DNA of 64,000 bases. Origin: Escherichia coli. GTDB taxonomy: Bacteria; Pseudomonadota; Gammaproteobacteria; Enterobacterales; Enterobacteriaceae. A model generated the notes under the pieces. That model worked only from the letters and a program-made list of their open reading frames with translations, had not been told where the DNA came from and did no database searches. Location of the stretch: the NCBI RefSeq assembly GCF_013122565.1, contig NZ_CP053258.1; one strand, given 5' to 3'. How positions within the stretch are numbered: the first letter of the stretch is position 1; every line of letters begins with the position of its first letter. Both the position numbers and the translations under genes were made by a program. Below, one piece after another: positions 1 through 64,000 of the stretch.

Positions 1-125
1 CGAATGCTGCGGCGCAACGGGCGCTGACAGGCGGCAAGAAAATCATCAAAAGAGAGCGTCGAAGGCATTGCTTCGCGCATTTGCGTCAGAAAGGCGTCCG
101 GGAAATAAACGGTATGTTGGGCCAC
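1..125 (-). CDS. rsmF: rRNA m5C methyltransferase RsmF (YebU), N-terminal fragment; gene runs off the window start
   Basis: Reverse complement of 1-125 translates from GTG (123-125) as [41 protein letters not shown], matching the recalled RsmF N-terminus. Sits downstream of letB as in K-12. Not in ORF track because truncated. Confidence 0.75.
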
Positions 126-204
126 GAGCATATACCACTGGCAAAAAAACAGGCGCGCAGTTTAGCATAAACGCTCCGGCGCAGGCACGCCGGAGCAGTG
201 GGCA

Positions 205-33536: not shown

Positions 33537-33950
33537 CTACAAATCCAACACCAGGCGTTTACCCTTCGCACGCGAACAACAGATCAACATACTTTGCTGG
33601 CTGGCACGCTCTTCATCGCTAAAATACTGATCCCGATGGTCAGCTTCACCTTCCAGTATTGCCGTTTCGCAGGTTCCGCATACCCCTTCACGACATAAAC
33701 ATTCCACTTTCGCGGCTTTATTATTTTCAATAACCTGCAAAATAGTCATCTCTTCCGGCACCACAAACTCTTTTCCGGAACGGGCAAGCACCAGGGTAAA
33801 TGCATCGCCGGTTTTGTCTTCGATAGCAAATTGCTCAAAGTGCAGCGTATCGGCGGCGATGTCCAGACGCGCAGCTTCACTTCTTACCGCTTCAATTAGC
33901 GCCTCGGGGCCACAGGTATAAACGTGTGTGCCAGGTTCGATATCCGCCAT
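33537..33950 (-). pseudogene. yeaX: 3' fragment of yeaX (cntB-like oxidoreductase): end of NAD-binding domain plus plant-type 2Fe-2S ferredoxin domain
   Basis: ORF 33537-34016 (159 aa). From MADIEPGTHVYTCGPEALIEAVRSEAARL onward it looks like the C-terminus of an FNR-type reductase followed by a 2Fe-2S domain (CREGVCGTCE ... LICC). The N-terminal FAD/FMN-binding domain is absent and yeaW/yeaV are not found upstream. Confidence 0.6.
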
Positions 33951-33992
33951 TGACATCCTCCACGTCCTGAAGGACGAGGAGGATGTCAATGG
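33947..33992. repeat. 46-bp near-perfect palindrome at the 5' edge of the yeaX fragment
   Basis: ccattgacatcctccacgtcc-tgaa-ggacgaggaggatgtcaatgg: two 21-nt arms with one mismatch. The minus-strand reading of the left arm gives GGAGG, 6 nt spacer, ATG (the MADIEPG start). Confidence 0.85.
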
Positions 33993-34136
33993 CAGGGTAT
34001 GAGTTGTATATTGCATTTAACGAATTAATTATTTTTGTGTTATATAAATTAAACAATTAAGAATTCGGAAAGCCATAAAACACGAAACGGAAACAATAAA
34101 AGGTGAAATGACGCAGGTTATTAACTGCAAAGAACG

Positions 34137-43650: not shown

Positions 43651-45141
43651 TCATGAACGGCTGTTTTTGTTCTGCTTATTGACATATAAACGCTCATCGG
43701 AAGCTTTATACGCATCATGTAACGTATCGTTTTCTTTCATCGCGTAAATACCGGAAGAGAAGCCAATCTCTTTCTGCGGCGCGATATGTTGCAGACGTTT
43801 TTCGATACGTTCAGGCAGTTGTGCTGCAATTTGCGGCGTCGAATCGACAAGAATGATGCAGAATTCATCGCCACCGAGTCGGATGGCATAATCACTTTTA
43901 CGAATCGACAGTTTAATCGCCTGAGCTAATAACGTAATCGCTAAATCCCCCTCCTGATGACCGAGGGTGTCATTTATTTGCTTTAACTTGTCCATGTCAA
44001 TTGCAATAAACATCACCGAAGAACCGGATTGCACCAGTTTTTGCAACCGCTGCTCCAGTTCAGGGGTTAAAATTTTGCGATTATAGAGTCCAGTCATCGC
44101 ATCACTAATATTTTCTCGCGACACATTTTGGTATAAACGGAAGTGCATCCGCACCATATTCAGCAAAATTAACGCCGTCAAAATCCAGAACAGAACGCTT
44201 TTCCACGAAGACGTGATAAAGTAAAGAATATCAATGGATAACGAGACACGAATGCCGCCCGGTAAGTCATGGACGTAACTGACATACTGGAACAGATTAT
44301 CTTCGCTCTGGTTGATGATAATGTCGCGCCCCGAATCTGTATCGGTTAGCGTGACATTGAGAAAACGCCAGAGGAGAGGGCGGTCATGAGTGTAAAAGAT
44401 ATTCCGCAGATTGTTTTTGTTAATATCCAGCAGCACAATCCCTTTTAGCTGCCCTGCAACATACACCGGCGTCAGCAAACTCATCACGTTCTGTTTAGTA
44501 CGCTGATCCTGGTAAATGCTCGACAATACGGTACGCCCGGTAAATACCTTTTCAATATCTTTGCGATCGATGCCAATACTTCCTGACTGCAGGAAGGACC
44601 AGTTATTCATCGCAAAGTATTCAACATTAACCGGCTCATAAAAATAGACATAGCGGTCATTGAGATCGAGATAATAGTGAAATTTCTCTTCGGCCATCCC
44701 AAGACCTGAACCGTAATCATCCTGGTGGCGGTTGCCTTCCACTGCCTGATCAAAAGCGGGTAATAGTGCTGCAGCTTCCACAATTGTGTCGCAGTCAGTG
44801 GATGCGGTTTGTAGTGTGCCGCGTAAGCCCGGGTATTTATGGGCAGTCAGGTTTAAGCCATGGGTATTATTGGCAGACTCAAAAGCCTCGCAGATGGCGC
44901 GCCGCTGTTCTGGCGACACTTCCGACTGCTCAGCAGCGAGAGCGCGCATCACATGCGCGGCAATACTCTGATTCTGATACTTATCATAAAGAAAGGAGGA
45001 GTCTGCTTTCTGCACGATATAGCGCAGATAGGCACTCATTGCTCTGTCGCTGGCGACAAGTTCAAAAATAAGGAAGGAAGATGTCAGCACAATGACACTT
45101 GCGGCGATAAAATGCCGGAGCATTCTATGGTGCAATTTCAT
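43651..45141 (-). CDS. dgcJ: Diguanylate cyclase DgcJ (YeaJ)
   Basis: ORF 43651-45321; start trimmed to MKLHHRMLRHFIAASVIVLTSSFLIF (496 aa); RLGGDEF motif. Confidence 0.85.
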   Translation of the reverse strand: MKLHHRMLRHFIAASVIVLTSSFLIFELVASDRAMSAYLRYIVQKADSSFLYDKYQNQSIAAHVMRALAAEQSEVSPEQRRAICEAFESANNTHGLNLTAHKYPGLRGTLQTASTDCDTIVEAAALLPAFDQAVEGNRHQDDYGSGLGMAEEKFHYYLDLNDRYVYFYEPVNVEYFAMNNWSFLQSGSIGIDRKDIEKVFTGRTVLSSIYQDQRTKQNVMSLLTPVYVAGQLKGIVLLDINKNNLRNIFYTHDRPLLWRFLNVTLTDTDSGRDIIINQSEDNLFQYVSYVHDLPGGIRVSLSIDILYFITSSWKSVLFWILTALILLNMVRMHFRLYQNVSRENISDAMTGLYNRKILTPELEQRLQKLVQSGSSVMFIAIDMDKLKQINDTLGHQEGDLAITLLAQAIKLSIRKSDYAIRLGGDEFCIILVDSTPQIAAQLPERIEKRLQHIAPQKEIGFSSGIYAMKENDTLHDAYKASDERLYVNKQNKNSRS

Positions 45142-45321
45142 GATAAATGGCACTCCTTCGGTTAGTGAAACGAGAAAACCAGATAAAGTTCGATTGCGGC
45201 CTGGCACAGGGGCGCTAATTATACTCATCTCTGCGCCGCTGGGGAGGGGAAATTTAGGGGTAATAGTAATAAATTGTATGCAAAAGCCACGCAAAAAGCA
45301 TGGCTCTGAATATTTTTGCAC

Positions 45322-46797
45322 TTAAATATGATGAATAATCACTTTGTTGCCCCCCTCGCTTTTCGCTTCGCGTAAGGCTTTATCTGCTTCCGTCATGACA
45401 AGCGAGATATTACGCGTGTCACCCGTTGAAAAAACCGTGCCAATACTGATGGTCATTTGTTCAGGAACATCATATCTGTTACTAAAGCCGGTCAGGAGTT
45501 CGACATTTTTACGCATACGTTCCGCAATGATTTTTGCCTGGGCACTATTGAGTTCGGTAAATAGCAAGCCAAACACCTCACCCTCCAGTCGCGCTAAAAT
45601 ATCATCGGGGCGGATGCTTTGCTGGATAATATCGACAATTGAAACCAGCACTTTATCACCCACACGATGTCCCCATTGGGCATTGATACGTTTGAACTGA
45701 TTAATATCAACCAGCATGACACAGAAGTCCTTAACAACAGGTCGCGACAATAATGACTCTACGCTGTTGAAAAAGTAGCGCCGATTATAAATATTGGTCA
45801 GCACATCATGAACTGCCAGTTTGCTGGAGAGTTGCAGTTCCTGAAAAATGTTATAAATCAGAAAAGACACAACAAACAGTTTACTGGAGACTTCAATCCC
45901 GCGACTGATATACCAGATGGTGTAATTATACTCATCCAGAGTCAGTAGAAGTAAGTTACAGCATAGCGATGCCAGACATAATAATGCTATTAACGGCCAT
46001 AGTTCGCTGGCTAATCGTGTACGCATGATAATAAAGAACAGTAAAAATGCCCACAAACAAACCAATATTTTTGTATAGTTGATTCCCCAGGTCGCAGTAT
46101 GGTTGTCCGGACAGTAATCGACGACATACAAAGAATAGTCAGCGTTATAACTGCTCAGATTGTGTGCCAGAAGGGGAAAAACTAAAAAAGGGATCAGCGC
46201 CAGCAACAGGATTGCCATTTTTTTCTTATTGTTGTCAAGGATGTTGTCTTTTCCATAACAAAAGAGCGCCAGCGAGGTTAAACAAATAAAACTGAGTTGG
46301 CGGAAAATATAGAAAATAGAAACATCATTCGACTTTGTCTGAATCAGTGTACTGTCGCTGATAGGTTTATGGATAACAACAATAGTTTCAACTAAATAGA
46401 TAAGGCCACTTAAAAACGCAAGACTTAAAATGAGTGTTGGTAGAATTTGTTTGTTAGTGAAATATTTCATTAACATGAAAAGAAAAATGATGGCGTTAAG
46501 GAAAAACAAAGCCACAACGACCATCAGATAATTCATCTGTGGGATGAGTTTTACATTCGTGTTTTCGTTATATAAGGTGGTGATGCAAAATAAAATTAAC
46601 GTCAGCAATAAACTGAAAATAAAAAAGCTTTGAGCTTTTAATTTTTGTGTACCCATAGAAACCATAAAAAGGAGAGCAATATGAGTGCTGGATTTTATTG
46701 ATGGCAGAGATATATAGTTTTGACCAGGATCAATTTTCGTTAACGATAAAAAATATTTAAAGAATAACCCCAGGGAAATACGTGTTGACCGAATCAT
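45322..46797 (-). CDS. cdgI: c-di-GMP-binding protein CdgI (YeaI), degenerate GGDEF domain
   Basis: 491-aa membrane protein with EGEVF in place of GGDEF (ARLEGEVFGLLF). Confidence 0.85.
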   Translation of the reverse strand: MIRSTRISLGLFFKYFLSLTKIDPGQNYISLPSIKSSTHIALLFMVSMGTQKLKAQSFFIFSLLLTLILFCITTLYNENTNVKLIPQMNYLMVVVALFFLNAIIFLFMLMKYFTNKQILPTLILSLAFLSGLIYLVETIVVIHKPISDSTLIQTKSNDVSIFYIFRQLSFICLTSLALFCYGKDNILDNNKKKMAILLLALIPFLVFPLLAHNLSSYNADYSLYVVDYCPDNHTATWGINYTKILVCLWAFLLFFIIMRTRLASELWPLIALLCLASLCCNLLLLTLDEYNYTIWYISRGIEVSSKLFVVSFLIYNIFQELQLSSKLAVHDVLTNIYNRRYFFNSVESLLSRPVVKDFCVMLVDINQFKRINAQWGHRVGDKVLVSIVDIIQQSIRPDDILARLEGEVFGLLFTELNSAQAKIIAERMRKNVELLTGFSNRYDVPEQMTISIGTVFSTGDTRNISLVMTEADKALREAKSEGGNKVIIHHI

Positions 46798-46943
46798 TTT
46801 TCCGAATGATTGTTTTCTGGAACTAAATTGTGTAAAGGTTATGCTGTCATATTTAAAACGATTGTAAGCTAATGTATGTAATAAATGAGATAATTTACAG
46901 TGAGCTAAAAATCAGCCAGGCGATAATGACCCGGCTGATAGTT

Positions 46944-48239
<1,296 letters not shown>

Positions 48240-48339
48240 CTACATTTGCCAACTGTATGCTACGCCTGTGTTGCCGCTTCTCTGGCCCACGGTTCGCTGT
48301 CGTTGTAGGCCCGGTAGCATGTATACCGGGCCAGGGTTG

Positions 48340-50274
48340 TTAAGACGATTTACGTACGCGCAAATACCATTCGCACAGTAAACGCACCTGTTTACGGGTG
48401 TAGCCTTTTTCCATCATACGGTCGACAAAGTCGTCATGTTTCTTCTGCTCGTCGGTTGACGTTTTGGCGTTAAACGAAATAACCGGCAACAGCTCCTCGG
48501 TATTGGAGAACATTTTCTTCTCGATAACCGTGCGCAGTTTTTCATAGCTGGTCCAGTTCGGATTGCGTCCGCTGTTATTCGCTCTGGCGCGCAGTACGAA
48601 GTTAACAATCTCGTTGCGGAAATCTTTTGGATTACTGATCCCCGCCGGTTTCTCGATTTTCTCCAGCTCGGCGTTAAGAGACTCGCGGTCAAACAGCTGC
48701 CCGGTATCCGGATCGCGATACTCCTGATCCTGAATCCAGAAATCCGCGTAGGTAACATAACGGTCGAAAATGTTTTGCCCATATTCGGAATAGGATTCAA
48801 GGTAGGCCGTCTGGATCTCTTTGCCGATAAACTCGGCATATTTCGGGATCAGATAACCTTTCAGGAACTCCAGATAGCGTTCTGCCTGCTCTTGCGGGAA
48901 CTGCTCGCGCTCGATCTGCTGTTCCAGGACGTAGAACAGATGGACCGGGTTTGCCGCCACTTCTACATGATCGAAGTTGAACACGCGGGAGAGGATCTTA
49001 AACGCAAAACGCGTCGACAGACCGTTCATCCCTTCATCGACACCGGCATAGTCACGATATTCCTGATACGACTTGGCTTTGGGATCGGTGTCTTTCAGAC
49101 TTTCGCCATCATAAACCCGCATCTTTGAATAAATGCTGGAGTTTTCTGGCTCTTTCAGGCGCGAAAGAATGGAAAAACGTGACAGTGTTTCGAGCGTGCC
49201 AGGGGCGCAGGGGGCGTGAGTCAATTCACTGTGATTAAGCAATTTCTCGTAGATTTTGATCTCTTCGGAAATGCGCAAGCAATACGGCACCTTTACGATG
49301 TAAACACGATCGAGGAAGGCTTCGTTGTTTTTGTTATTACGGAAAGTGACCCATTCGGATTCGTTCGAGTGGGCGAGAATAATCCCGTTGAACGGCAGGG
49401 CGGAGATACCTTCCGTCCCGTTGTAGTTACCTTCCTGAGTGGCGGTTAACAGCGGATGCAGCACTTTTATCGGTGCTTTAAACATCTCAACGAATTCCAT
49501 GATCCCCTGATTGGCGCGGCATAGTGCACCGGAATAGCCATAGGCGTCCGGGTCATTCTGCGCGTAGTGTTCGAGTTTACGAATATCGACTTTCCCAACC
49601 AGCGCGGAGATGTCCTGGTTGTTCTCATCACCGGGTTCCGTTTTGGCGATGGCAATTTGTTGCAGAATTGACGGCCAGACCTTCACTACCCGGAACTTAG
49701 TGATATCGCCACCAAATTCATGCAGGCGTTTTGCCGCCCACGGCGACATGATGGTGCCGAGATAACGGCGAGGAATGCCATACTCTTTTTCCAGAATCTG
49801 CGCATCTTCCTGCGGATTGAAAAGACAGAACGGATGATCGTTGACCGGGCTACGCTCACCGTTGGCGCTCAATACATAAATCGGTACGAGCTGCATTAAT
49901 GATTTCAGTCGCTCAGCAAGCGATGATTTACCCCCACCCACAGGCCCCAGCAGATACAGGATTTGTTTCTTCTCTTCCAGCCCCTGAGCCGCGTGTTTCA
50001 GATAAGAGACAATCTGTTCAATCGCGTCTTCCATGCCGTAAAACTCTTCAAATGCCGGATAACGTGCAATGACCCGGTTAGAAAAGAGTCGAGAAAGTCT
50101 GGGTTCCTGGGCTGTATCGACCATGACAGGCTCACCGATAGCCATCAATAGCCGCTCAGCCGCGTTGGCATAAGCACTGCGATCTTGCCGACAAGTGGTA
50201 AGAAACTCCTGCAGTGTGAACTCTTCGTCCTTGGCAGCTTCATATCGCTGGCGATAGTGATCGAATATATTCAT
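48340..50274 (-). CDS. yeaG: PrkA-family serine protein kinase YeaG
   Basis: 644-aa ORF starting MNIFDHYRQRYEAAKDEEFTLQEFL, with Walker A GPVGGGKSS. Confidence 0.95.
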   Translation of the reverse strand: MNIFDHYRQRYEAAKDEEFTLQEFLTTCRQDRSAYANAAERLLMAIGEPVMVDTAQEPRLSRLFSNRVIARYPAFEEFYGMEDAIEQIVSYLKHAAQGLEEKKQILYLLGPVGGGKSSLAERLKSLMQLVPIYVLSANGERSPVNDHPFCLFNPQEDAQILEKEYGIPRRYLGTIMSPWAAKRLHEFGGDITKFRVVKVWPSILQQIAIAKTEPGDENNQDISALVGKVDIRKLEHYAQNDPDAYGYSGALCRANQGIMEFVEMFKAPIKVLHPLLTATQEGNYNGTEGISALPFNGIILAHSNESEWVTFRNNKNNEAFLDRVYIVKVPYCLRISEEIKIYEKLLNHSELTHAPCAPGTLETLSRFSILSRLKEPENSSIYSKMRVYDGESLKDTDPKAKSYQEYRDYAGVDEGMNGLSTRFAFKILSRVFNFDHVEVAANPVHLFYVLEQQIEREQFPQEQAERYLEFLKGYLIPKYAEFIGKEIQTAYLESYSEYGQNIFDRYVTYADFWIQDQEYRDPDTGQLFDRESLNAELEKIEKPAGISNPKDFRNEIVNFVLRARANNSGRNPNWTSYEKLRTVIEKKMFSNTEELLPVISFNAKTSTDEQKKHDDFVDRMMEKGYTRKQVRLLCEWYLRVRKSS

Positions 50275-50709
50275 GGTATGCCGTCCTTTCGTTTTTTAGC
50301 ACAGGTTAAGAGCCGTTCATATGAATAGTAGAGGCTCCCGGAAGAGGTAAACTGAACGACGTCTCTTGCTAAAACACAGCAACTCTCATGCCATTTTATC
50401 GACGATGAGAACAACGTGCCCGGTGATACACCTTCAAAATTAAGCGTAGATGGCAAATGGAAAACTTGCCTGCACGGCTTTCTTAATTTCAATGGCATAT
50501 CAACAACTCATCCATAAATTTTGCATAATTAATGTAAAGACCAGGCTCGCCAGTAACGCTAAATTCATTTGGCTGTAAGCGCGGTGTCATCCGCGTCAGG
50601 AAAATTAAACAGTTACTTTAAAAAATGAAAACGTAAAAAGGTTGGGTTTCGATGTATTGACGGGTAAACTTTGTCGCCCGCTAAACATTTGTTTAAGGAA
50701 TGATTAATT

Positions 50710-51456
50710 GTGACCAAACTCAAACTTCTGGCACTTGGAGTGCTTATCGCAACGTCTGCAGGCGTAGCGCACGCTGAAGGTAAATTTTCCCTGGGCGCAG
50801 GCGTAGGTGTCGTTGAACACCCATATAAAGATTACGATACCGATGTGTACCCAGTACCGGTAATCAACTATGAAGGCGATAACTTCTGGTTCCGTGGCTT
50901 AGGTGGTGGTTACTACCTGTGGAATGACGCAACGGATAAACTTTCAATTACCGCTTACTGGTCGCCGCTTTACTTCAAAGCTAAAGACAGTGGCAATCAC
51001 CAAATGCGTCACCTGGATGACCGTAAGAGCACCATGATGGCTGGTCTGTCTTATGCTCACTTTACCCAGTACGGTTACCTGCGTACCACCCTGGCTGGCG
51101 ATACCCTGGATAACAGCAACGGCATCGTCTGGGATATGGCCTGGTTGTATCGTTACACCAACGGTGGCCTGACCGTGACTCCGGGTATTGGTGTGCAGTG
51201 GAACAGCGAAAATCAGAACGAATACTATTATGGCGTATCGCGCAAAGAGTCCGCTCGCAGCGGTCTGCGTGGCTATAACCCGAACGACAGCTGGAGCCCT
51301 TACCTGGAGCTGAGCGCCAGCTACAACTTCCTCGGCGACTGGAGTGTTTACGGTACCGCGCGCTACACCCGTCTGTCTGATGAAGTTACTGACAGCCCGA
51401 TGGTGGATAAATCCTGGACTGGCCTGATTTCTACCGGGATCACCTACAAATTCTGA
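50710..51456 (+). CDS. mipA: MltA-interacting outer-membrane protein MipA
   Basis: 248-aa ORF with GTG start, signal peptide MTKLKLLALGVLIATSAGVAHA. Confidence 0.9.
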   Translation: MTKLKLLALGVLIATSAGVAHAEGKFSLGAGVGVVEHPYKDYDTDVYPVPVINYEGDNFWFRGLGGGYYLWNDATDKLSITAYWSPLYFKAKDSGNHQMRHLDDRKSTMMAGLSYAHFTQYGYLRTTLAGDTLDNSNGIVWDMAWLYRYTNGGLTVTPGIGVQWNSENQNEYYYGVSRKESARSGLRGYNPNDSWSPYLELSASYNFLGDWSVYGTARYTRLSDEVTDSPMVDKSWTGLISTGITYKF

Positions 51457-51485
51457 TAATGCATCTTTCCAGGGCATTTTGTGCA

Positions 51486-51513
51486 TAAAAACAGGGCGTG
51501 ATGCCCTGTTTTG
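51486..51513 (+). terminator. Rho-independent terminator downstream of mipA
   Basis: Stem acagggc / gccctgt with gtgat loop followed by a T4 run. Confidence 0.6.
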
Positions 51514-51545
51514 CATTACGGTGGTGCAATACCTGGGAGGAAACA

Positions 51546-52400
51546 ATGCAACAAAAAATGATTCAATTTAGTGGCGATGTCTCACTGCCAGCCATAGGGC
51601 AGGGAACATGGTATATGGGCGAAGATGCCAGTCATCGCAAAACAGAAGTTGCTGCACTACGCGCGGGCATTGAACTCGGTTTAACCCTCATTGATACCGC
51701 CGAAATGTATGCCGATGGCGGTGCCGAAAAGGTGGTTGGGGAAGCATTAACCGGTCTGCGAGAGAAGGTCTTTCTCGTCTCTAAAGTCTATCCGTGGAAT
51801 GCTGGCGGGCAAAAAGCGATAAATGCATGCGAAGCCAGTTTACGCCGTCTCAATACTGATTATCTCGATCTCTACTTATTACACTGGTCTGGCAGTTTCA
51901 CTTTTGAAGAGACTGTCGCAGCGATGGAAAAATTGATCGCTCAGGGAAAAATCCGCCGCTGGGGCGTTTCTAACCTTGATTATGCCGATATGCAGGAACT
52001 CTGGCAGCTGCCGGGGGGAAATCAGTGTGCCACTAATCAGGTGCTTTACCATCTCGGTTCACGAGGGATTGAGTACGATCTACTCCCCTGGTGCCAGCAA
52101 CAACAGATGACGGTGATGGCTTACAGTCCATTAGCCCAGGCCGGGCGGTTGCGCAATGGGCTGTTAAAAAACGCGGTAGTCAACGAAATTGCACATGCTC
52201 ACAATATCAGCGCGGCACAAGTATTGTTGGCGTGGGTAATCAGCCATCAGGGTGTGATGGCGATTCCAAAAGCGGCCACGATTGCCCATGTCCAACAAAA
52301 TGCGGCTGTGCTTGAGGTCGAACTTTCTTCAGCGGAATTAGCTATGTTGGATAAGGCATATCCGGCACCAAAAGGAAAAACTGCGCTGGATATGGTGTGA
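51546..52400 (+). CDS. yeaE: Aldo-keto reductase YeaE
   Basis: ORF 51498-52400; start trimmed to MQQKMIQFSGDVSLPAIGQGTW (284 aa) with GGGAGG SD. Confidence 0.9.
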   Translation: MQQKMIQFSGDVSLPAIGQGTWYMGEDASHRKTEVAALRAGIELGLTLIDTAEMYADGGAEKVVGEALTGLREKVFLVSKVYPWNAGGQKAINACEASLRRLNTDYLDLYLLHWSGSFTFEETVAAMEKLIAQGKIRRWGVSNLDYADMQELWQLPGGNQCATNQVLYHLGSRGIEYDLLPWCQQQQMTVMAYSPLAQAGRLRNGLLKNAVVNEIAHAHNISAAQVLLAWVISHQGVMAIPKAATIAHVQQNAAVLEVELSSAELAMLDKAYPAPKGKTALDMV

Positions 52401-52450
52401 TGTTGATGCGTGCCGGATGCATCGCACCCGGCACACAACATTAACGCAAA

Positions 52451-53335
52451 TTAACGTTTGGTAACGCGAATGGATTGCGCCAGATGTGCAGGTTTTTCTT
52501 TGGTCACTTTTTGCGTTTCTGAAGCGTAAGCCGTTTCTACACAAACAAAGGTCTTGTAGCCATCGTCCGGCATGTCGCCCATGCTAACTGAAAGCGCCGG
52601 TCCCGGGTTCCAGCCGACAACGTTCAGATGATGCTGGTGGCCTACGGCGATAATACGATTCAGCGCTTCATCATTAATTACGCTGCAATCTTGCGGATTC
52701 AGATACACGCGATCGGTACGGTCAGGGAAGGTCTGAATACCGTCGGTCAGTACATCTTCTTTCGCGTCATTTACTTTATCAATGAAGCGATCGCCCAGCC
52801 CACTGACGCTTACCTTAGCGATATCACCCACGTTAAAGTAGGTATGCAGGGCAGAGGTGGTTTCAAATTCGCCATGAGATTCAAGATCGATTTCACAGGT
52901 TTTACCCACGCGGAAATGCGCTAACAGCGTAAAGTCGTGCGGCCAGAATTTTTTCGTCTCGTCGCTTTGTGTCAATTCAAAAGTCAGCGCTACGCCATCA
53001 GCATCTTCATAATGTGATTTCAGCGTCCACGGCAGGTTGCGGGCAAAACCGTGCGCAGGCAGACCTTGTTCTGCAGCCGGACCAAACCACGGCCAGCAAA
53101 CCGGTACGCCACCGCGAATAGCGACGCCATTTTTGAACGGTGTGTTGTTGCTCAACCACAGAACTTCTTCTTCACTCGCAGGTTTCCACGAGAGAAGGTG
53201 TGCGCCCTGTAATGCAAAAGAGGCTTTTACCTGGGGATGATCGACCACAATGAGGTCCAGTTCATCCAGTTTACGACGGGAGAGGACAGGGGAGATTTGT
53301 TCGATGACCGGAAGGGCAAAAATTTTATTAATCAT
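52451..53335 (-). CDS. yeaD: Glucose-6-phosphate 1-epimerase YeaD
   Basis: ORF 52451-53356; start trimmed to MINKIFALPVIEQISPV (294 aa). Confidence 0.9.
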   Translation of the reverse strand: MINKIFALPVIEQISPVLSRRKLDELDLIVVDHPQVKASFALQGAHLLSWKPASEEEVLWLSNNTPFKNGVAIRGGVPVCWPWFGPAAEQGLPAHGFARNLPWTLKSHYEDADGVALTFELTQSDETKKFWPHDFTLLAHFRVGKTCEIDLESHGEFETTSALHTYFNVGDIAKVSVSGLGDRFIDKVNDAKEDVLTDGIQTFPDRTDRVYLNPQDCSVINDEALNRIIAVGHQHHLNVVGWNPGPALSVSMGDMPDDGYKTFVCVETAYASETQKVTKEKPAHLAQSIRVTKR

Positions 53336-53365
53336 GACGCAGTCCTTTAACTTCATTTTATCAGG

Positions 53366-53397
53366 TAAAAAAAAGAGCGACCGAAGTCGCTCTTTTT
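53366..53397. terminator. Bidirectional terminator between gapA and yeaD
   Basis: Stem gagcgac / gtcgctc with cgaa loop flanked by an A8 run and a T5 run. Confidence 0.65.
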
Positions 53398-53418
53398 AGA
53401 TCACAGTGTCATCTCAAC

Positions 53419-54426
<1,008 letters not shown>

Positions 54427-54755
54427 CTATTTGTTAGTGAATAAAAGGTTGCCTGTAAAATTACAAAAACCTTACGCAGCGTCAAGCGGAATCGTGTCAA
54501 TCATTGCGACAAATCAATCCTGTGCCTAAGCATTACGCGACTGACTCGCCTCACTCTTCCTTTGGGCTTGAGACCACATGGGGTCGGCGCCCCGAATTTT
54601 AAAGGGCAATTACGATAAAAATGTGATTTTCATCACGATTTAGGTGCAGCCATTTCGTCGAGATCAAGTTTAGGACAAAATTTTACCAGTTGGTGTTAAT
54701 GTTTTGTTAGAATCAGTCACGTAATGTGAGCACGATTAAAGTGAGATGTGAGCAA

Positions 54756-55169
54756 ATGGCTAATAAACCTTCGGCAGAAGAACTGAAAAAAAATTTGTCC
54801 GAGATGCAGTTTTACGTGACGCAGAATCATGGGACAGAGCCGCCATTTACGGGTCGTTTACTGCATAACAAGCGTGACGGCGTATATCACTGTTTGATCT
54901 GCGATGCCCCGCTGTTTCATTCCCAAACCAAGTATGATTCCGGCTGTGGCTGGCCCAGTTTCTACGAACCGGTGAGTGAAGAATCCATTCGTTATATCAA
55001 AGACTTGTCACATGGAATGCAGCGCATAGAAATTCGTTGCGGTAACTGTGATGCCCATCTGGGGCATGTCTTTCCCGACGGGCCGCAGCCAACGGGCGAA
55101 CGTTATTGTGTTAACTCTGCCTCTTTACGCTTTACCGATGGCGAAAACGGCGAAGAAATCAACGGTTGA
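54756..55169 (+). CDS. msrB: Peptide methionine-(R)-sulfoxide reductase MsrB
   Basis: ORF 54726-55169; start trimmed to [31 protein letters not shown] (137 aa); CxxC zinc motifs. Confidence 0.9.
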
Positions 55170-55210
55170 AAAAACGATTCAGCAACTTATTCCACAGGAG
55201 CGGAAAAATT

Positions 55211-55483
55211 ATGAATCTTGATGACATTATCAACAGCATGACGCCTGAGGTATACCAGCGTTTGTCGACCGCCGTTGAACTGGGGAAATGGCCTGATGGC
55301 GTTGCGTTGACCGAGGAACAAAAAGAGAACTGCCTGCAACTGGTGATGCTGTGGCAAGCCCGCCATAATACCGAAGCACAGCATATGACAATTGACACAA
55401 ATGGTCAGATGGTCATGAAGAGCAAACAGCAGTTAAAAGAAGATTTTGGTATCTCAGCAAAGCCTATTGCCATGTTTAAGTGA
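55211..55483 (+). CDS. yeaC: DUF1315 protein YeaC
   Basis: ORF 55166-55483; start trimmed to MNLDDIINSMTPEVYQRLSTAVELGKWPDG (90 aa). Confidence 0.8.
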   Translation: MNLDDIINSMTPEVYQRLSTAVELGKWPDGVALTEEQKENCLQLVMLWQARHNTEAQHMTIDTNGQMVMKSKQQLKEDFGISAKPIAMFK

Positions 55484-55589
55484 ATGAGTTATCTAGTATT
55501 TAAGCCTGTTATTAAGGGAGGGCAAATATACTTGTTCGGACGTCGTGTTTTAGCTGCAAGTAGGTTAAATGCAACACTGACAAGTATTA

Positions 55590-55626
55590 TCTGGCCTACA
55601 ATGTCATTGAGGAAATGTAGGCCAGA
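55590..55626. repeat. Hairpin in the pncA-yeaC spacer
   Basis: Stem tctggcctaca / tgtaggccaga with 15-nt loop, nested within a wider inverted repeat atacttgt ... acaagtat; no U-tract. Confidence 0.5.
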
Positions 55627-55643
55627 GATGAATTCAACTAAAA

Positions 55644-56285
55644 TTACCCCTGCGTCTCTTCCCAGTCTGCCAGCGTATATAGCGTTGCCCCAGCTGCTGA
55701 CATTTCCATAAACGCGTGCGCACTGTCCTGTGGCTGGATATTCACCCCACGACAGCCATCGATAATCACGTTTACCTTATAACCTAACTGTAACGCGTCC
55801 AGCACGGTAAACTTCACGCAATAGTCAGTCGCCAGGCCCATAACGATCAATTCATCGATTTCATGATCGCGTAACCAGTCATCAAGCGAGGTTTTCTGCC
55901 GACGGCCGTTATCAAAAAAGGCACTGTAACTGTCAACTAAAGGATTTTCGCCTTTATGGAACACCGCTGCGATCGCTTTTTGGTTCAGTAACGGATGTAA
56001 TTGTGCGCCTTCACTGTTCTGCACACAGTGATCTGGCCAGAAGGTTTGTGGCAAACCGTCGAGTTGGCCTGGCGTATAAGGCTCTACACCGTGCTGACTG
56101 GCAAAACTGCCGTGATTCGCCGGGTGCCAGTCCTGACTGGCGATAACCGCTTCACCGCGCGACTGGCACCAGTCAATCAGGCGGTTAGCGACATCCACCG
56201 TACTGTCACCTTCCGGCACGGCGAGCGCGCCACCAGCACAGAAATCATTTTGTAAATCGACCAGTAACAGGGCGCGAGGGGGCAT
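55644..56285 (-). CDS. pncA: Nicotinamidase/pyrazinamidase PncA
   Basis: ORF 55644-56303; start trimmed to MPPRALLLVDLQNDFCAGGAL (213 aa). Confidence 0.9.
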   Translation of the reverse strand: MPPRALLLVDLQNDFCAGGALAVPEGDSTVDVANRLIDWCQSRGEAVIASQDWHPANHGSFASQHGVEPYTPGQLDGLPQTFWPDHCVQNSEGAQLHPLLNQKAIAAVFHKGENPLVDSYSAFFDNGRRQKTSLDDWLRDHEIDELIVMGLATDYCVKFTVLDALQLGYKVNVIIDGCRGVNIQPQDSAHAFMEMSAAGATLYTLADWEETQG

Positions 56286-56295
56286 TGCAGTCTCC

Positions 56296-57312
56296 TTAAT
56301 CATCCGGCGTCAGTTCGCCGCGCAGGTTTTGGCTCATGGCCTTGCGAATGGTTTCAGTATCCAGTTCCTGGCTAAGCAGGTAATGCAGTTTGGTTAGCGT
56401 GGCTTCTACAGTCATATCTGCACCGCCAATTACGCCGGCATGGGCGAGGGCGTTACCGGTGGCATAACCACCCATGTTCACTTTACCGGACATACATTGT
56501 GTCAGGTTGACCACCACAATACCGCGATCGCTGGCTTCTTGTAATTCCTGCAGGAAGGCTTTGTTTTGTGGCGCATTACCCACGCCATAGGAGCGCAGAA
56601 TCAATGCTTTCACCGGTTGGCGCAGAAAATTGCGCACGACGTCAGCAGAAATCCCCGGATAAATCGTCACTACGCCAATTGGTTGCGGGGTGATTGGATG
56701 AACGATCAATTCCCCATCACCGTGCGGGGCGGGTGGCGTATTCAAACGACGAATATGGATACCTGCTTCCAGTAACGGAGGAAGGTTTGGAGAGGCAAAC
56801 GCATCAAAACCATCGGCATGGGCTTTGGTAGTGCGGTTGCCGCGATACAGTCGGTTATTAAAAAAGAGTGTTACTTCGTTGATCGGATAATTCGCCGCAA
56901 CGTACAACGCATTCAGCAGATTAATTTGTCCGTCAGAGCGTAGCTCAGCCAGCGGGATTTGTGACCCTGTCACAATGACCGGTTTACCGAGATTCTCGAG
57001 CATGAACGACAGCGCAGAGGCGGTATACGCCATCGTGTCGGTACCGTGTAGAATGACAAAACCATCATAGTCGTCATAGTGCGCTTTAATATCTTCAGCA
57101 ATATGCTGCCAGTCTTCCGGCGTCATATCTGAAGAATCCATCAGTGGCGTATATTCATGAATGGTGAAATCTGGCATCTCCGGGCGATGGAATTCCGGCA
57201 TCAGCGCCAGTTGGCGTTGTAGATGACCTGACACCGGTATATAACCCTGCTCGGAACGCTGCATCCCGATGGTCCCGCCCGTGTAGGCAACGTAAATTGA
57301 TTTCTTTTGCAT
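56296..57312 (-). CDS. ansA: Cytoplasmic L-asparaginase 1
   Basis: 338-aa ORF starting MQKKSIYVAYTGGTIGMQRSEQGY; 10 nt upstream of pncA. Confidence 0.95.
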   Translation of the reverse strand: MQKKSIYVAYTGGTIGMQRSEQGYIPVSGHLQRQLALMPEFHRPEMPDFTIHEYTPLMDSSDMTPEDWQHIAEDIKAHYDDYDGFVILHGTDTMAYTASALSFMLENLGKPVIVTGSQIPLAELRSDGQINLLNALYVAANYPINEVTLFFNNRLYRGNRTTKAHADGFDAFASPNLPPLLEAGIHIRRLNTPPAPHGDGELIVHPITPQPIGVVTIYPGISADVVRNFLRQPVKALILRSYGVGNAPQNKAFLQELQEASDRGIVVVNLTQCMSGKVNMGGYATGNALAHAGVIGGADMTVEATLTKLHYLLSQELDTETIRKAMSQNLRGELTPDD

Positions 57313-57443
57313 GATATTGATATGAATGATATCGAAAGAGCAAAAGTATATACGTGAGGGGCAGCGAGCGCACCTGGATACTCTGTGGATATGAGAAAAG
57401 TCCGGCAGGACGGAGGGATTAGTGTCCCGCCGGAGAAAAGTGG

Positions 57444-58166
57444 TTAATCCTGCAACGCATAGGTTACGGTCGTGACTACGCGTACCGTTTTATTAATCGC
57501 CGTAGGATCATCTTCATCACTGCCACTGGCAAAGATCTGGAATACGCCTTGTGAGGCATCGCTAATTGACCCCACCTGGCTACCTGAGTCCGTTGCAAAT
57601 TGTAGTGCGGCGTTGCGTGCATCTTTGGTGGCGGCAGCAATCATCTCAGCGCGCAGTGCGCCAATACCATTAAAGCGATAGGCGACTTTGCTCTCAGCGA
57701 TAGCGCCATCTGTAGCGACTTGCAGTTCGTTTAATTTCGCGACGACTTTTTCGACAGCAGCAACATTATGGGTTTTTATCGTCACTGACCCGTCTGCGTT
57801 ATAGCGTGGCATTGTGGGATCATCTTTCAGATAGAAGGAATCTGTTCGCTTGCTTGTCCATTGGCCCAGGATTATCTCTTTCTCGTTAATCCCCTGAGCA
57901 TTGAGTTCGGCAACAATTTTTTTCTGCGCGTCTTCCAGTTTCGGGAACAGTTCGCCGGGAACATTACCTTTAAAGTTAAGCGCAATTATTAATTCTGCCG
58001 TATCTGCGCGAACTTCTTTTTCAGAAAGCCCGCGCACATTGACATAACGGTTGTTGGTTTTTAAATGTTTAACACCATCGCCAACAAAATAACCACAGGC
58101 GCTAATCCCCAGTCCGAGGACGATAGCGGCAATTAAAGAGGGGGCCTTGTTCACTGATGACTCCAT
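57444..58166 (-). CDS. SIMPL-domain (DUF541) putative lipoprotein
   Basis: ORF 57444-58256; most plausible start is MESSVNKAPSLIAAIVLGLGISAC (signal-like hydrophobic stretch plus lipobox-like ISAC), giving 241 aa. SIMPL-like blocks: VRADTAELIIALNFKG, AQKKIVAELNAQGINEKEI, AATKDARNAALQFATDSGSQVGSI. Start codon lacks an obvious SD. Confidence 0.6.
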   Translation of the reverse strand: MESSVNKAPSLIAAIVLGLGISACGYFVGDGVKHLKTNNRYVNVRGLSEKEVRADTAELIIALNFKGNVPGELFPKLEDAQKKIVAELNAQGINEKEIILGQWTSKRTDSFYLKDDPTMPRYNADGSVTIKTHNVAAVEKVVAKLNELQVATDGAIAESKVAYRFNGIGALRAEMIAAATKDARNAALQFATDSGSQVGSISDASQGVFQIFASGSDEDDPTAINKTVRVVTTVTYALQD

Positions 58167-58269
58167 ATCAGATGCTAAATGAGCAAGGGAATGTAGTGGA
58201 GAGAGGGAGTGAAAGACAGTCCGATTCAGGAGTGTGGCCGACAGCATATCGGCCACATTTTTGCAGGAT

Positions 58270-60126
58270 TTAACGCACGTTGGCGCAGGTCAGGCAAAAC
58301 GCATAACGGTTTTGTGGGTCGTTAAACGCCGCCAGCTTGTCGCTTTCACTTTTAACGGTAGAGGCTACCGAGGCCAGCGGTGCAGGTAACATGGCCTGGA
58401 ACGCATCTGGCAACATTGCCCGGACAGAACCAGACATGTTGTCCATCACTTTGTCGAAGAAGGTCGGTTCATCAACGTAGTATTCCAGATGCCACTGTTT
58501 CACTTTTGCCAGCTCTGCTGCTTTGGCGACCGCATCATCGAAATCCCCGAGACTATCGACCAGCCCGTTAGCTTTTGCGTCCTGACCGGTCCAGACGTGG
58601 CCCTGGGCGATTTTATCAATCTGCTCCGGCGTCGAATGACGCGCATCAGCAACCAGCGTGATAAAGCGTTTATAGCCATTCTCAATGCTTAACTGCATCA
58701 TCTGCTGCGCTTCCGGCGGCAGTGCCCTGGTGATAGAAACATCCGCCAGCGGTGAAGTTGAGACACCATCAGTATGAACACCAATCGAATCCAGACTATT
58801 TTCTACGGTGGTGATCACGCCGAAGATACCGATAGAACCGGTCAGGGTGCTGGGGTTAGCCACAATGTAATTAGCTGGCGTGGAAATCCAGTAACCACCA
58901 GATGCCGCCATGCCGCCCATCGATACAACCACAGGCTTACCCGCAGCCCGGGCTGCTGCCAGTTCAGCGCGAATCACTTCAGACGCGGTAACGCTGCCGC
59001 CTGGGCTATTAACACGCAGAACAATCGCTTTCACTTTCGGGTCAAGGCGAGCGTCGCGGATTTGTGCCGCAGTGGTATCACCGCCAACATTCCCCTGAGT
59101 TTCCTCGCCATCCATAATTGCGCCATTAGCGAAGACGACACCGATGCTGTCACCGGTATCTGCTGGCGTTTTCAATGCGTAATCGTAATAACTGATGGCG
59201 CGATAATTTTTATCAGTCTTACTCCAGCCGAACTCTTTGGTCAGAGCTTTTTCGATTTCGGCACTCGATGCCAGTGCATCGACCAGCTTGTTTTCCAGCG
59301 CATATTTCGCGGTATCGCCACCGGTTTTGGTTAAACCTTCAAGCAACCCTTGCGCGCCAGGAAATACCTGCTGAGCAGGGATCTGCCGGTTAGCGGCAAC
59401 AGTATTCAGATAGTTTTGCCACAGCTCACCAATCCAGCGGCTGTCAGCTTCGCGGGCTGCCGGTGACATATCATCACGAATAAACGGTTCAACGGCAGAT
59501 TTATACGTACCCACGCGGAACACATGGGTGGAAACTTTCAGCTTATCCAGCAACGATTTGTAGTACAGACCGTTGGTGGCAAAGCCGTGTAGATCAACCA
59601 CGCCTTGCGGAGACAGCCAAATTTTATTGGCGAAACTGGCGAGATAATATTGCCCCTGGCTGTAGTTCTCGCCAACGGCATAAACCGGTTTCCCGCTGTC
59701 ACGAAACTCTTTCAGGGCTTTGCCGATGTACTGCATAGACGGCTGGTCGCCGCCTGCGAAGTTTTTCAGATCCATCACGATACCGGTGATATTGCGGTCG
59801 TCCTTCGCCTGGCGAATGGTGTTGACGATATCAAACAGTGAGTTTTCCTGCAGACGATCGGAACTGGCACCAAGTAGTTGGCGGCTTAATTTACTAAACC
59901 GCTGAGAACTGTCGGGTTTATCGACGATTACACCAGAAATGTCCAGCAGCAGTGCACCACGACTGGCCGTTTCTTTCGAATCACCACCACTGACCTGCAT
60001 CCAGATCCCCACACCAACCAGCACGAGAAAAATAAAGAACAGGTTAAGTACCATTTCACGGACGAAATTCAGCAGACGCCACGTCCATTTAAAAAATCCG
60101 GCAATAAATCGCCAAAGGGTTCGCAT
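58270..60126 (-). CDS. sppA: Signal peptide peptidase A (protease IV)
   Basis: ORF 58270-60270; start trimmed to [27 protein letters not shown] (618 aa); tandem S49 peptidase domains. Confidence 0.95.
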
Positions 60127-60286
60127 GTATTCTCCCAACTTAAGGTCACACCTGTCACAGGCGCAATAGATGTGGTTATCGTAATGACCCAACCGACACT
60201 TGTCAGCAGGAATTGCGGACTGTGCTGTAACAAAATCCACTCTCGTGTTAATTTTGTGAATAAATATCATGACAGGAGTTAATCAA

Positions 60287-60838
60287 ATGGATGCACTCGA
60301 ACTATTGATCAATCGCCGTAGCGCCTCCCGCCTGGCTGAACCCGCGCCAACGGGTGAACAACTGCAAAACATCCTGCGTGCGGGTATGCGCGCGCCGGAC
60401 CATAAGTCCATGCAACCGTGGCATTTTTTTGTGATTGAAGGGGAAGGACGCGAGCGTTTCAGCGCCGCACTGGAACAGGGGGCGATTGCTGCCGGTAGTG
60501 ATGACAAAGCTATCGACAAAGCCCGTAATGCGCCGTTCCGCGCACCGCTCATCATCACGGTGGTGGCGAAATGCGAAGAAAATCATAAAGTCCCGCGATG
60601 GGAACAGGAAATGTCTGCCGGATGCGCGGTCATGGCGATGCAAATGGCAGCCGTTGCCCAGGGGTTTGGCGGCATCTGGCGCAGTGGCGCATTAACTGAA
60701 AGCCCGGTAGTGCGTGAAGCATTCGGTTGCCGTGAGCAGGATAAAATTGTCGGTTTTCTCTACCTCGGTACGCCGCAGTTGAAAGCATCTACGTCGATAA
60801 ACGTCCCGGACCCGACGCCGTTTGTGACTTATTTCTGA
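60287..60838 (+). CDS. ydjA: Nitroreductase-family protein YdjA
   Basis: ORF 60269-60838; start trimmed to [25 protein letters not shown] (183 aa). Confidence 0.9.
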
Positions 60839-60954
60839 TAATTGTCGCGAAACTGTCTGGATTGTGAGCAAAGGCGCAGGAATTCAGACACTCTCACTTA
60901 TCACTTCACGGAATGAGGGTTACCATACCCGGATTGCATTGACAGGAGATGTCC

Positions 60955-61998
60955 ATGAGCGAGAACTCGATTCGTTTGACCCAATACAGCCACGGAGCTG
61001 GTTGCGGCTGTAAAATTTCCCCAAAAGTGTTGGAAACCATCCTGCACAGTGAGCAGGCGAAGTTTGTTGATCCGAATTTGCTTGTGGGTAATGAAACCCG
61101 CGACGATGCGGCGGTGTACGATCTGGGCAATGGCACCAGCGTTATCAGTACCACCGACTTCTTTATGCCGATCGTTGATAATCCTTTCGATTTTGGCCGC
61201 ATTGCGGCGACTAACGCCATCAGCGATATCTTCGCGATGGGGGGCAAACCGATTATGGCGATTGCGATCCTCGGCTGGCCGATTAACAAACTTTCCCCGG
61301 AAATTGCCCGCAAAGTAACCGAAGGTGGACGCTATGCATGCCGTCAGGCGGGTATTGCGCTGGCTGGCGGTCACTCCATCGATGCGCCGGAGCCGATTTT
61401 TGGTCTGGCGGTAACGGGGATCGTACCGACCGAGCGGGTGAAGAAAAACAGTACCGCACAAGCCGGATGCAAACTGTTCCTGACGAAACCGCTGGGGATC
61501 GGCGTTCTTACCACGGCTGAGAAAAAATCACTGTTGAAACCAGAACATCAGGGACTGGCGACGGAAGTGATGTGCCGGATGAACATCGCAGGCGCGTCCT
61601 TTGCCAACATTGAAGGCGTAAAAGCGATGACCGACGTAACGGGCTTTGGCCTGCTGGGCCATTTGAGCGAAATGTGTCAGGGCGCAGGTGTGCAGGCGCG
61701 CGTTGACTATGACGCGATCCCAAAATTGCCGGGGGTTGAAGAGTACATTAAGTTGGGCGCAGTGCCTGGCGGCACCGAACGTAACTTTGCCAGCTACGGT
61801 CATCTGATGGGTGAAATGCCGCGTGAAGTGCGCGATTTGCTGTGCGATCCGCAAACTTCTGGCGGTTTGCTGCTGGCGGTCATGCCGGAAGCAGAAAATG
61901 AGGTTAAAGCTACAGCCGCCGAGTTTGGCATTGAACTGACGGCGATTGGCGAACTGGTGCCAGCGCGCGGCGGTCGTGCCATGGTTGAGATCCGTTAA
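60955..61998 (+). CDS. selD: Selenide, water dikinase SelD
   Basis: ORF 60949-61998; start trimmed to [27 protein letters not shown] (347 aa). Confidence 0.95.
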
Positions 61999-62002
61999 TT
62001 CA

Positions 62003-63964
62003 ATGCGGTTGTTTATTGCCGAAAAACCGAGTCTGGCGCGTGCCATTGCTGATGTCCTGCCCAAACCGCACCGGAAAGGCGATGGCTTTATTGAGTGCGG
62101 TAATGGTCAGGTGGTGACCTGGTGTATCGGTCACCTGCTTGAGCAGGCGCAGCCAGACGCCTACGACAGCCGCTATGCGCGCTGGAATCTTGCGGATTTG
62201 CCGATTGTCCCGGAAAAGTGGCAATTACAGCCCCGACCCTCCGTGACCAAACAACTTAATGTCATCAAACGCTTTTTGCATGAAGCCAGCGAAATCGTTC
62301 ATGCCGGGGACCCGGATCGTGAAGGGCAATTGCTGGTGGATGAAGTGCTGGACTATCTGCAACTGGCACCGGAAAAGCGCCAGCAGGTGCAGCGTTGCTT
62401 GATAAACGACCTGAACCCGCAGGCGGTTGAGCGGGCGATCGACCGTCTTCGTTCCAACAGTGAGTTTGTACCGCTGTGCGTTTCTGCGCTGGCGCGAGCG
62501 CGTGCCGACTGGCTGTACGGCATCAATATGACCCGTGCGTATACCATTCTCGGTCGCAATGCCGGTTATCAGGGCGTACTTTCCGTGGGACGCGTGCAGA
62601 CACCCGTGCTCGGGCTGGTGGTGCGCCGCGATGAAGAGATTGAAAACTTCGTGGCGAAAGACTTCTTTGAAGTCAAAGCACATATCGTGACACCTGCCGA
62701 TGAGCGGTTTACCGCTATCTGGCAACCGAGCGAAGCGTGTGAACCGTACCAGGATGAAGAAGGGCGCTTGTTACATCGTCCACTGGCGGAGCATGTGGTT
62801 AACCGCATTAGTGGTCAACCGGCTATTGTCACCAGCTATAACGATAAACGGGAATCAGAATCCGCGCCGCTGCCTTTTTCGCTTTCGGCGTTGCAGATTG
62901 AAGCGGCAAAACGCTTTGGTCTGAGCGCGCAGAACGTGCTTGATATCTGCCAGAAGCTGTACGAAACGCACAAGCTAATCACTTATCCGCGTTCCGATTG
63001 TCGCTATTTGCCAGAAGAACATTTTGCCGGACGCCACGCGGTGATGAATGCCATCAGCGTTCATGCACCGGGCTTGTTACCGCAGCCGGTGGTAGATCCG
63101 AATATGCGCAACCGCTGTTGGGATGACAAAAAGGTCGATGCGCACCACGCCATCATCCCGACCGCACGGAGTTCTGCGATCAACCTGACGGAGAACGAAG
63201 CGAAGGTCTATAACCTGATTGCCCGTCAGTACTTGATGCAGTTCTGCCCGGATGCGGTCTTCCGCAAGTGTGTTATCGAACTGGACATTGCCAAAGGCAA
63301 ATTTGTCGCTAAAGCCCGTTTTCTTGCTGAAGCAGGCTGGCGCACGCTGTTAGGCAGCAAAGAGCGCGATGAAGAAAACGACGGCACGCCATTGCCTGTG
63401 GTGGCGAAAGGCGATGAGTTGCTGTGTGAAAAAGGTGAAGTGGTAGAGCGGCAAACCCAGCCGCCGCGCCATTTTACCGATGCAACACTGCTTTCGGCGA
63501 TGACCGGGATCGCGCGCTTTGTACAGGACAAAGATCTGAAAAAGATCCTCCGTGCTACCGATGGTCTGGGGACAGAAGCAACGCGTGCCGGGATTATTGA
63601 ACTGCTGTTCAAGCGTGGCTTCCTGACCAAAAAAGGGCGCTATATCCACTCTACCGACGCCGGAAAAGCGTTATTCCATTCGCTGCCGGAGATGGCGACG
63701 CGACCGGACATGACCGCTCACTGGGAATCGGTGCTGACGCAAATCAGCGAAAAGCAGTGTCGCTACCAGGACTTTATGCAGCCGCTGGTGGGGACGCTAT
63801 ATCAGCTTATTGATCAAGCCAAACGTACTCCGGTGCGGCAGTTTCGCGGCATTGTGGCTCCGGGCAGTGGTGGCAGTGCTGATAAGAAAAAGGCTGCAAC
63901 GCGTAAACGTAGTGCGAAAAAAAGTCCGCCAGCAGATGAAGCCGGAAGCGGGGCGATAGCGTAA
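62003..63964 (+). CDS. topB: DNA topoisomerase III
   Basis: ORF 61946-63964; start trimmed to [29 protein letters not shown] (653 aa); TOPRIM plus topo IA domains, basic C-tail; starts 4 nt after selD. Confidence 0.95.
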
Positions 63965-64000
63965 GCAAGCGAATCTTTCGTGCTATTCGAGTCATATTCT

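Follow-up and report, generated by a model that had tools for sequence, protein, structure and literature searches.

The ydj-Negative Allele at the yeaC-pncA Interval of Escherichia coli

The window, which is the whole 64-kb stretch of E. coli DNA analysed here, carries a common ydj-negative allele of this species that is found mainly in B1- and C-type lineages. In this allele the convergent genes yeaC and pncA are separated by a spacer of exactly 160 bp (55484-55643), and the ydj sugar-catabolism cluster that lies between them in K-12 is missing. The presence/absence polymorphism of ydj is already known from the literature. Its ydj-negative form is likely to be an old deletion allele that was spread by homologous recombination, and the more conspicuous of two inverted repeats in the spacer belongs to the pncA 3′ region rather than to the loss of the cluster.

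The yeaC-pncA Locus in the Window and in K-12

In K-12 MG1655, the genes ydjE, F, G, H, I, J, K and L (b1769-b1776) lie between pncA (b1768) and yeaC (b1777), in an interval of about 9.1 kb. The MG1655 annotation thus agrees with a preliminary description of the window, which had placed eight ydj genes between pncA and yeaC in K-12. None of the genes from ydjE to ydjL was found in the window, where the gene order is gapA, msrB, yeaC, pncA, ansA, sppA. The stop codons of yeaC (55481-55483) and pncA (55644-55646, on the reverse strand), together with the comparison of the window with K-12, confirm that the two genes are adjacent at 160 bp and that the cluster is missing. The same 160-bp spacer is not seen in K-12, which carries the ydj cluster instead. 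The features of the locus are as follows.

55211-55483, + strand: yeaC (DUF1315/YeaC family), 90 aa, 98% identical to K-12 YeaC by tblastn and named yeaC in matching records
55484-55493: first 10 nt past the yeaC stop codon, collinear with K-12 (megablast alignment to 55493 = K-12 1861692)
55494-55568: 75 nt found only in the ydj-less allele; their place is taken in ydj-positive genomes by about 9.1 kb (the ydjL upstream region and ydjL to ydjE)
55528-55535 and 55580-55587, unstranded: 8-nt inverted repeat, ATACTTGT and ACAAGTAT, from an inverted-repeat search
55569-55643: pncA-proximal part of the spacer, common to ydj-positive genomes, in which it is the pncA-ydjE spacer (blastn: Escherichia sp. 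E1V33, locus L008, from 55569; K-12 from 55575)
55590-55626, - strand: hairpin with an 11-bp stem, TCTGGCCTACA (55590-55600) and TGTAGGCCAGA (55616-55626), and a 15-nt loop, from an inverted-repeat search
55628-55638: 11-nt stretch ATGAATTCAAC between the hairpin and the pncA stop codon, from alignments
55644-56285, - strand: pncA (nicotinamidase/pyrazinamidase), 213 aa, 99% identical to K-12 PncA and named pncA in matching records

K-12 shares with the window the flanking genes, the hairpin after pncA and a yeaC side that is identical to 10 nt past the stop codon, but it has about 9.1 kb (1852587-1861691) in place of 75-81 nt of the window and lacks the 11 nt of 55628-55638. This 11-nt stretch is also missing from E. 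whittamii, and is present, besides the window, in the E. coli strain PE164, in the ydj-positive E1V33 and in L007, a genome labelled E. coli SCPM-O-B-8794. A 75-aa open reading frame at 55484-55711, which extends across the spacer and runs antisense to the 3′ end of pncA, is taken as spurious because the corresponding frame of L007 stops after about 10 codons.

The whole 64 kb is collinear with K-12 at about 98.6% identity except for three gene-content differences, one of which is the ydj gap. The gap had been described as a second gene-content difference from K-12; the difference is real, but as a common and published polymorphism it is no peculiarity of this genome. The other difference mentioned earlier is presumably the one at 33949-34038, where about 88 bp replace K-12 1883145-1886397, a 3.25-kb segment with yeaV, yeaW and the 5′ part of yeaX of the carnitine monooxygenase cluster. 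Between ansA and sppA, the window has an extra 834 bp (57399-58232) that encode, on the - strand, a protein of about 240 aa, described as SIMPL domain-containing in matching RefSeq records. Of 5,426 complete E. coli genomes, 943 carry this DNA, O157:H7 among them, and it also occurs in Escherichia sp. MOD1-EC7003; it is missing from K-12 and from PE164, a ydj-negative strain that differs from the window in this respect. The possibility that the 834 bp are an IS1 copy was rejected, since no IS1 end is present in the window and the DNA encodes the SIMPL-domain protein; a search of its long open reading frame against NCBIfam gave no match.

Frequency of the ydj-Negative Allele

The window-type spacer is present in 1,087 of 5,426 complete E. 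coli genomes (20%), at 95-100% identity to a 151-nt spacer query, at least 80% of which is covered in 1,085 genomes. Identity is at least 99% in 945 of the 1,087, and a minority variant stands at 96%. The ydj cluster, for which a 4-kb query from ydjG to ydjJ was used, is present in 4,330 of the same 5,426 genomes (80%), and the spacer class and the ydj class together account for 5,417 of them. Because one in five complete E. coli genomes have the identical gap, the absence of ydj from the window is an ordinary gene-content difference.

The ydj-negative genomes listed include O26 and O111 strains. Among 700 meat-plant isolates, for which the whole ydj operon was handled as a variable cluster, ydjI was present in 96.6% of phylogroup A, 29.9% of B1, 50% of C, and 100% each of B2, D and E (PMC9602453, Table 2); an association with lactic-acid stress is reported in that paper as well. 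Similarly, ydjH is among the loci with true deletions in a pan-genome study (PMC12595684). The expectation that the ydj-less genomes would belong to phylogroup B2 is contradicted both by the strains listed and by the prevalence table, which point to B1 and C.

Several ydj-negative E. coli (PE164, 88-3493, O26 RM10386, O111 strains and APEC O78:H4 E14033) have the gene order of the window, msrB-yeaC/pncA-ansA, together with the 160-bp spacer. The spacer of 88-3493 is 100% identical to that of the window over 151 nt; that of PE164 differs by 1 nt and that of APEC E14033 is 96% identical. The flanking genes of the window are, however, only 98.2-98.9% identical to those of PE164, 88-3493 and other ydj-negative genomes of this group. 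Over 45000-64000 (19 kb), the identity of the window to complete E. coli genomes does not exceed 98.6%, and the combination of an absent ydj cluster with the SIMPL-domain gene is found only in a few small genomes (PT62, LP5-1, MB53 and ET201), at 98.3-98.4% identity over the same 19 kb. Judging from these identities, the window probably stems from a sparsely sampled, deep-branching lineage of E. coli.

The Inverted Repeats of the Spacer

The preliminary description had reported two nested inverted repeats in the spacer and had proposed that they mark a candidate junction. Both repeats exist, but they stand side by side rather than nested: the 8-nt pair is complete at 55587, and the 11-nt pair starts only at 55590. 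Their use as junction marks fails as well, since the 11-nt hairpin is present in ydj-positive genomes and the 8-nt pair is no better than chance and lacks conservation.

An inverted repeat of at least 11 nt arose in only 0.2% of 5,000 dinucleotide-preserving shuffles of the spacer, and the 11-nt pair is considered real because so few shuffles match its length. The hairpin of the window (55590-55626), with 6 G-C pairs in the 11-bp stem, folds at -18.9 kcal/mol (z = -5.3), and its counterparts in K-12 and L007 fold at -18.0 kcal/mol (z = -4.4) and -16.1 kcal/mol (z = -4.1), respectively. In K-12, the same hairpin lies 9-42 nt past the pncA stop codon, between pncA and ydjE. It is also found in the ydj-positive E. 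whittamii and Escherichia sp. E1V33 and in L007, and across Escherichia the stem is conserved and the loop variable. In the window, it falls wholly within the pncA-proximal segment (55569-55643) that is common to ydj-positive genomes. Because K-12 and other ydj-positive Escherichia carry it, the 11-nt hairpin is no deletion scar; going by these alignments, it is native to the 3′ region of pncA.

A G+C-rich stem, as in an intrinsic terminator, is present, but the hairpin is no canonical one, since its loop has 15 nt, instead of the short 3-8 nt, and a U-tract is missing. There is no U-tract or T-run on either strand, and a terminator scan of 55300-55800 returned 0 terminator-like sites. A promoter and terminator scan of the spacer found nothing, and Rfam gave no match up to E = 1 in 55200-55900. 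The hairpin arm presumably resembles the REP tail TGTAGGCCGGATAA. An assignment as a REP element was nevertheless rejected, because the hairpin is not dispersed in the 64-kb window, in which the arm TGTAGGCCAGATAA, at up to 2 mismatches, occurs nowhere but in the two arms of the hairpin itself, and because the annotation of NC_000913.3 lists no repeat feature between pncA and ydjE.

For the 8-nt repeat, 15% of 5,000 dinucleotide-preserving shuffles of the spacer contained an inverted repeat of at least this length (P about 0.15). The fold of 55524-55590 is only marginal (z = -1.9), with 8 of 200 shuffles folding equally well. One of its arms lies in the allele-specific segment and the other in the segment shared with ydj-positive genomes. 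As APEC E14033 carries a mutation in one arm, and the corresponding arms of the L007 spacer lack complementarity, the 8-nt repeat is treated as fortuitous, which it probably is on the evidence of these sequences.

The Junction and the 75-nt Segment

The alignment with K-12 halts at 55493 (K-12 1861692), 10 nt past the yeaC stop codon, and restarts at about 55575 (K-12 1852586). On the pncA side, homology to the ydj-positive Escherichia sp. E1V33 begins at 55569. Between these two limits of homology, 55493 and 55569, lie the 75 nt of 55494-55568, which are thus specific to the ydj-less allele. An alignment of the spacer to the K-12 boundaries had been proposed as a check on whether the junction is clean; it is not a simple splice, as these 75 nt have no detectable counterpart. 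The segment is common to the 1,087 E. coli genomes at 99-100% identity, and is shared at about 76% identity with the ydj-less Escherichia lineage represented by L007.

By eye and in MAFFT alignments, the 75-nt segment seemed to be homologous to the yeaC-ydjL spacers of ydj-positive genomes. This homology was rejected, since the local-alignment scores of 55494-55568 against the yeaC-ydjL spacers of K-12, HCP17S3_I4, E. whittamii and E1V33 are equal to the shuffle means. Because the 75 nt lack a detectable counterpart in the ydj-positive spacers examined, the direction of change cannot be read from the junction. The missing similarity is weak evidence either way, since just past the yeaC hairpin the yeaC-ydjL spacers of ydj-positive Escherichia species are not alignable with each other either.

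By its position, 55494-55522 may correspond to the yeaC-proximal CCCCTTT...AAAGGGG hairpin of ydj-positive alleles, a correspondence that is suggestive only. In the ydj-negative allele, the left arm of this hairpin, CCCCTTT, has decayed to TAGTATT, and consequently yeaC is here without that terminator-like structure. At the other end of the missing DNA, about 170 nt directly upstream of ydjL are highly conserved in K-12, E. whittamii and E1V33 (L001 13334-13500; L008 10460-10630), and the stretch that precedes them is unalignable. This conserved sequence probably represents the promoter and operator region of ydjL. No repeat is common to both boundaries of the K-12 ydj interval.

The yeaC-pncA Interval across Enterobacteriaceae

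The yeaC loci of 80 species representatives, onto which the K-12 proteins were mapped, show that the content of the yeaC-pncA interval varies across Enterobacteriaceae. About two dozen species, of Salmonella, Kosakonia, Phytobacter and some Enterobacter, have the two genes next to each other, with less than 600 bp between them. An insert of 1.3-2.4 kb separates them in many species of Citrobacter, Enterobacter, Klebsiella and Raoultella, and in Kluyvera the interval holds about 8 kb of other genes. The insert of Citrobacter braakii codes for a ChiD-type chitinase and a YajD-family HNH nuclease. A gene for a ChiD-type chitinase is found in the interval of Citrobacter, Enterobacter, Klebsiella and Kluyvera (loci L013, L021, L023 and L072, from 10271 onward), accompanied by a YajD-family nuclease gene in L013 and L023 and by about 6 kb more in Kluyvera. 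In Salmonella enterica (subsp. arizonae and diarizonae), yeaC and pncA are convergent, 181-274 bp apart and without ydj, as in the window, but the spacer has no detectable homology to the window spacer. In Citrobacter koseri NCTC10786 (L026 10271-10990), no match to pncA is present between yeaC and ansA, and pncA may therefore be lost or degraded in this representative.

The ydj cluster occupies the interval in 17 of the 80 representatives, which belong to Escherichia, Citrobacter, the Klebsiella oxytoca group, Raoultella planticola, Intestinirhabdus and a metagenome-assembled genome; E. whittamii, Escherichia sp. E1V33, several Citrobacter species and Intestinirhabdus alba are among those with ydj between yeaC and pncA. 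The per-gene nucleotide identity of ydj to K-12 tracks that of the flanks in E. whittamii, E1V33, C. amalonaticus, Intestinirhabdus and the metagenome-assembled genome. In E. whittamii, the ydj genes are 86-91% identical and the flanks 84-91.5% (gapA aside); the corresponding values are 76-83% and 77-85% in C. amalonaticus, and 74-81% and 72-77% in Intestinirhabdus. The annotation of the K-12 cluster contains only metabolic, transporter and regulator genes, and no integrase, transposase or tRNA gene. The G+C content per kb is 41-49% in the ydj cluster, 51-52% on the sppA-ansA side and 46-47% on the yeaC-msrB side. The notion that the cluster is a genomic island or an insertion by a mobile element is not supported by the lack of mobility genes and flanking repeats, nor by its divergence, which is on a par with that of the core genes around it in five species.

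Age and Exchange of the Allele

Outside the main body of E. coli genomes, the window-type junction is also found in L007, which is about 91% identical to the window over 18 kb and about 76% over the spacer. This finding indicates that the ydj-negative allele is old or has crossed lineage boundaries. In Escherichia sp. MOD1-EC7003, yeaC and pncA are likewise adjacent without the ydj cluster, but the junction is a different one: the spacer has 108 bp, keeps the K-12-type yeaC hairpin, and has a hairpin of another sequence (AAATGCCCG...CGGGCATTT) but not the one with GGCCTACA. No junction of the MOD1-EC7003 type was found in E. coli. Because MOD1-EC7003 has this second, independent ydj-less junction, the loss of ydj appears to have happened more than once.

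Two comparisons of the flanking genes speak for recombination. The yeaC side of the window is 99.0-99.7% identical to that of many ydj-positive genomes, and the best full-length match among ydj-negative genomes is 98.9%. A PncA identical to that of the window is encoded next to ydjE in the ydj-positive genome GCA_018838375.1 (L084), indicating that the pncA allele and the ydj status are uncoupled.

The History of the ydj Gap

The most probable history is that the entire ydjLKJIHGFE cluster, together with the control region upstream of it (about 9.1 kb in all), was lost long ago. The loss would have left yeaC and pncA 160 bp apart, and no mobile element would have been involved. Vertical descent with repeated loss fits, because the ydj genes at the same locus diverged in step with the flanks and mobility genes are missing. 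Homologous recombination in the conserved flanks would then move the presence and absence alleles between E. coli lineages. The 11-bp hairpin would be older than the deletion and may be a 3′ structure native to the pncA transcript, or to the convergent genes pncA and ydjE as a pair.

The opposite history starts from an ancestral ydj-less spacer, about 75 nt of which gave way to ydj as a metabolic islet gained by horizontal transfer in the ancestor of most E. coli; it is considered improbable. It is retained because the 75-nt segment, for which ydj-positive genomes have no counterpart, is not traceable, and it agrees with the slightly low G+C content of the cluster, with the adjacency of yeaC and pncA in Salmonella, Kosakonia, Phytobacter and some Enterobacter, and with the age of an allele whose spacer type recurs in L007 at about 76% identity. 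An acquisition sits poorly, however, with a cluster that occupies exactly this locus in at least five genera, has diverged to the degree of its flanks and is without mobility genes. The argument from the 75 nt is also weakened, as the stretch after the yeaC hairpin is unalignable even among ydj-positive Escherichia. Loss of the cluster is therefore the preferred reading.

If the cluster was lost, the inverted repeats might be the footprint or the agent of its excision, through a hairpin-mediated or site-specific deletion. Two such repeats do lie in the spacer, one of them far beyond chance, but this one is unchanged in ydj-positive genomes and at an equal distance from pncA, whereas the other is at chance level and not conserved. 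Moreover, neither repeat spans the breakpoints at 55493/55494 and 55568/55569, and a second copy of the hairpin was not found at the yeaC-ydjL boundary of ydj-positive genomes, which makes an excision of this kind highly improbable. An assembly artefact or a recent, strain-specific deletion is refuted, since 1,087 independent complete genomes and a further Escherichia lineage have the identical junction.

A further reading concerns the scale on which the two alleles coexist. The ydj-negative junction is found in E. coli and in L007, and ydj-positive alleles are found in E. coli, E. whittamii and E1V33, on which basis the two might form a long-lived polymorphism of Escherichia that crosses species boundaries. 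This is a tentative and somewhat doubtful proposal. If true, niche-dependent selection for or against an octuluronate-type sugar pathway would keep both alleles, and recombination would shuffle them.

Implications

The ydj operon encodes the kinase YdjH and the aldolase YdjI, which act on long-chain uronates; to our knowledge, no natural substrate of the operon has been established. About a fifth of sequenced E. coli do without ydj, which is an accessory cluster. The gap informs on the metabolic repertoire and the lineage of a strain, not on a new mechanism, and in this sense it adds little beyond bookkeeping. Two corrections are nevertheless useful for the reading of this locus: the hairpin in the spacer is part of the pncA 3′ region and no deletion scar, and the interval between yeaC and pncA is variable in Enterobacteriaceae.
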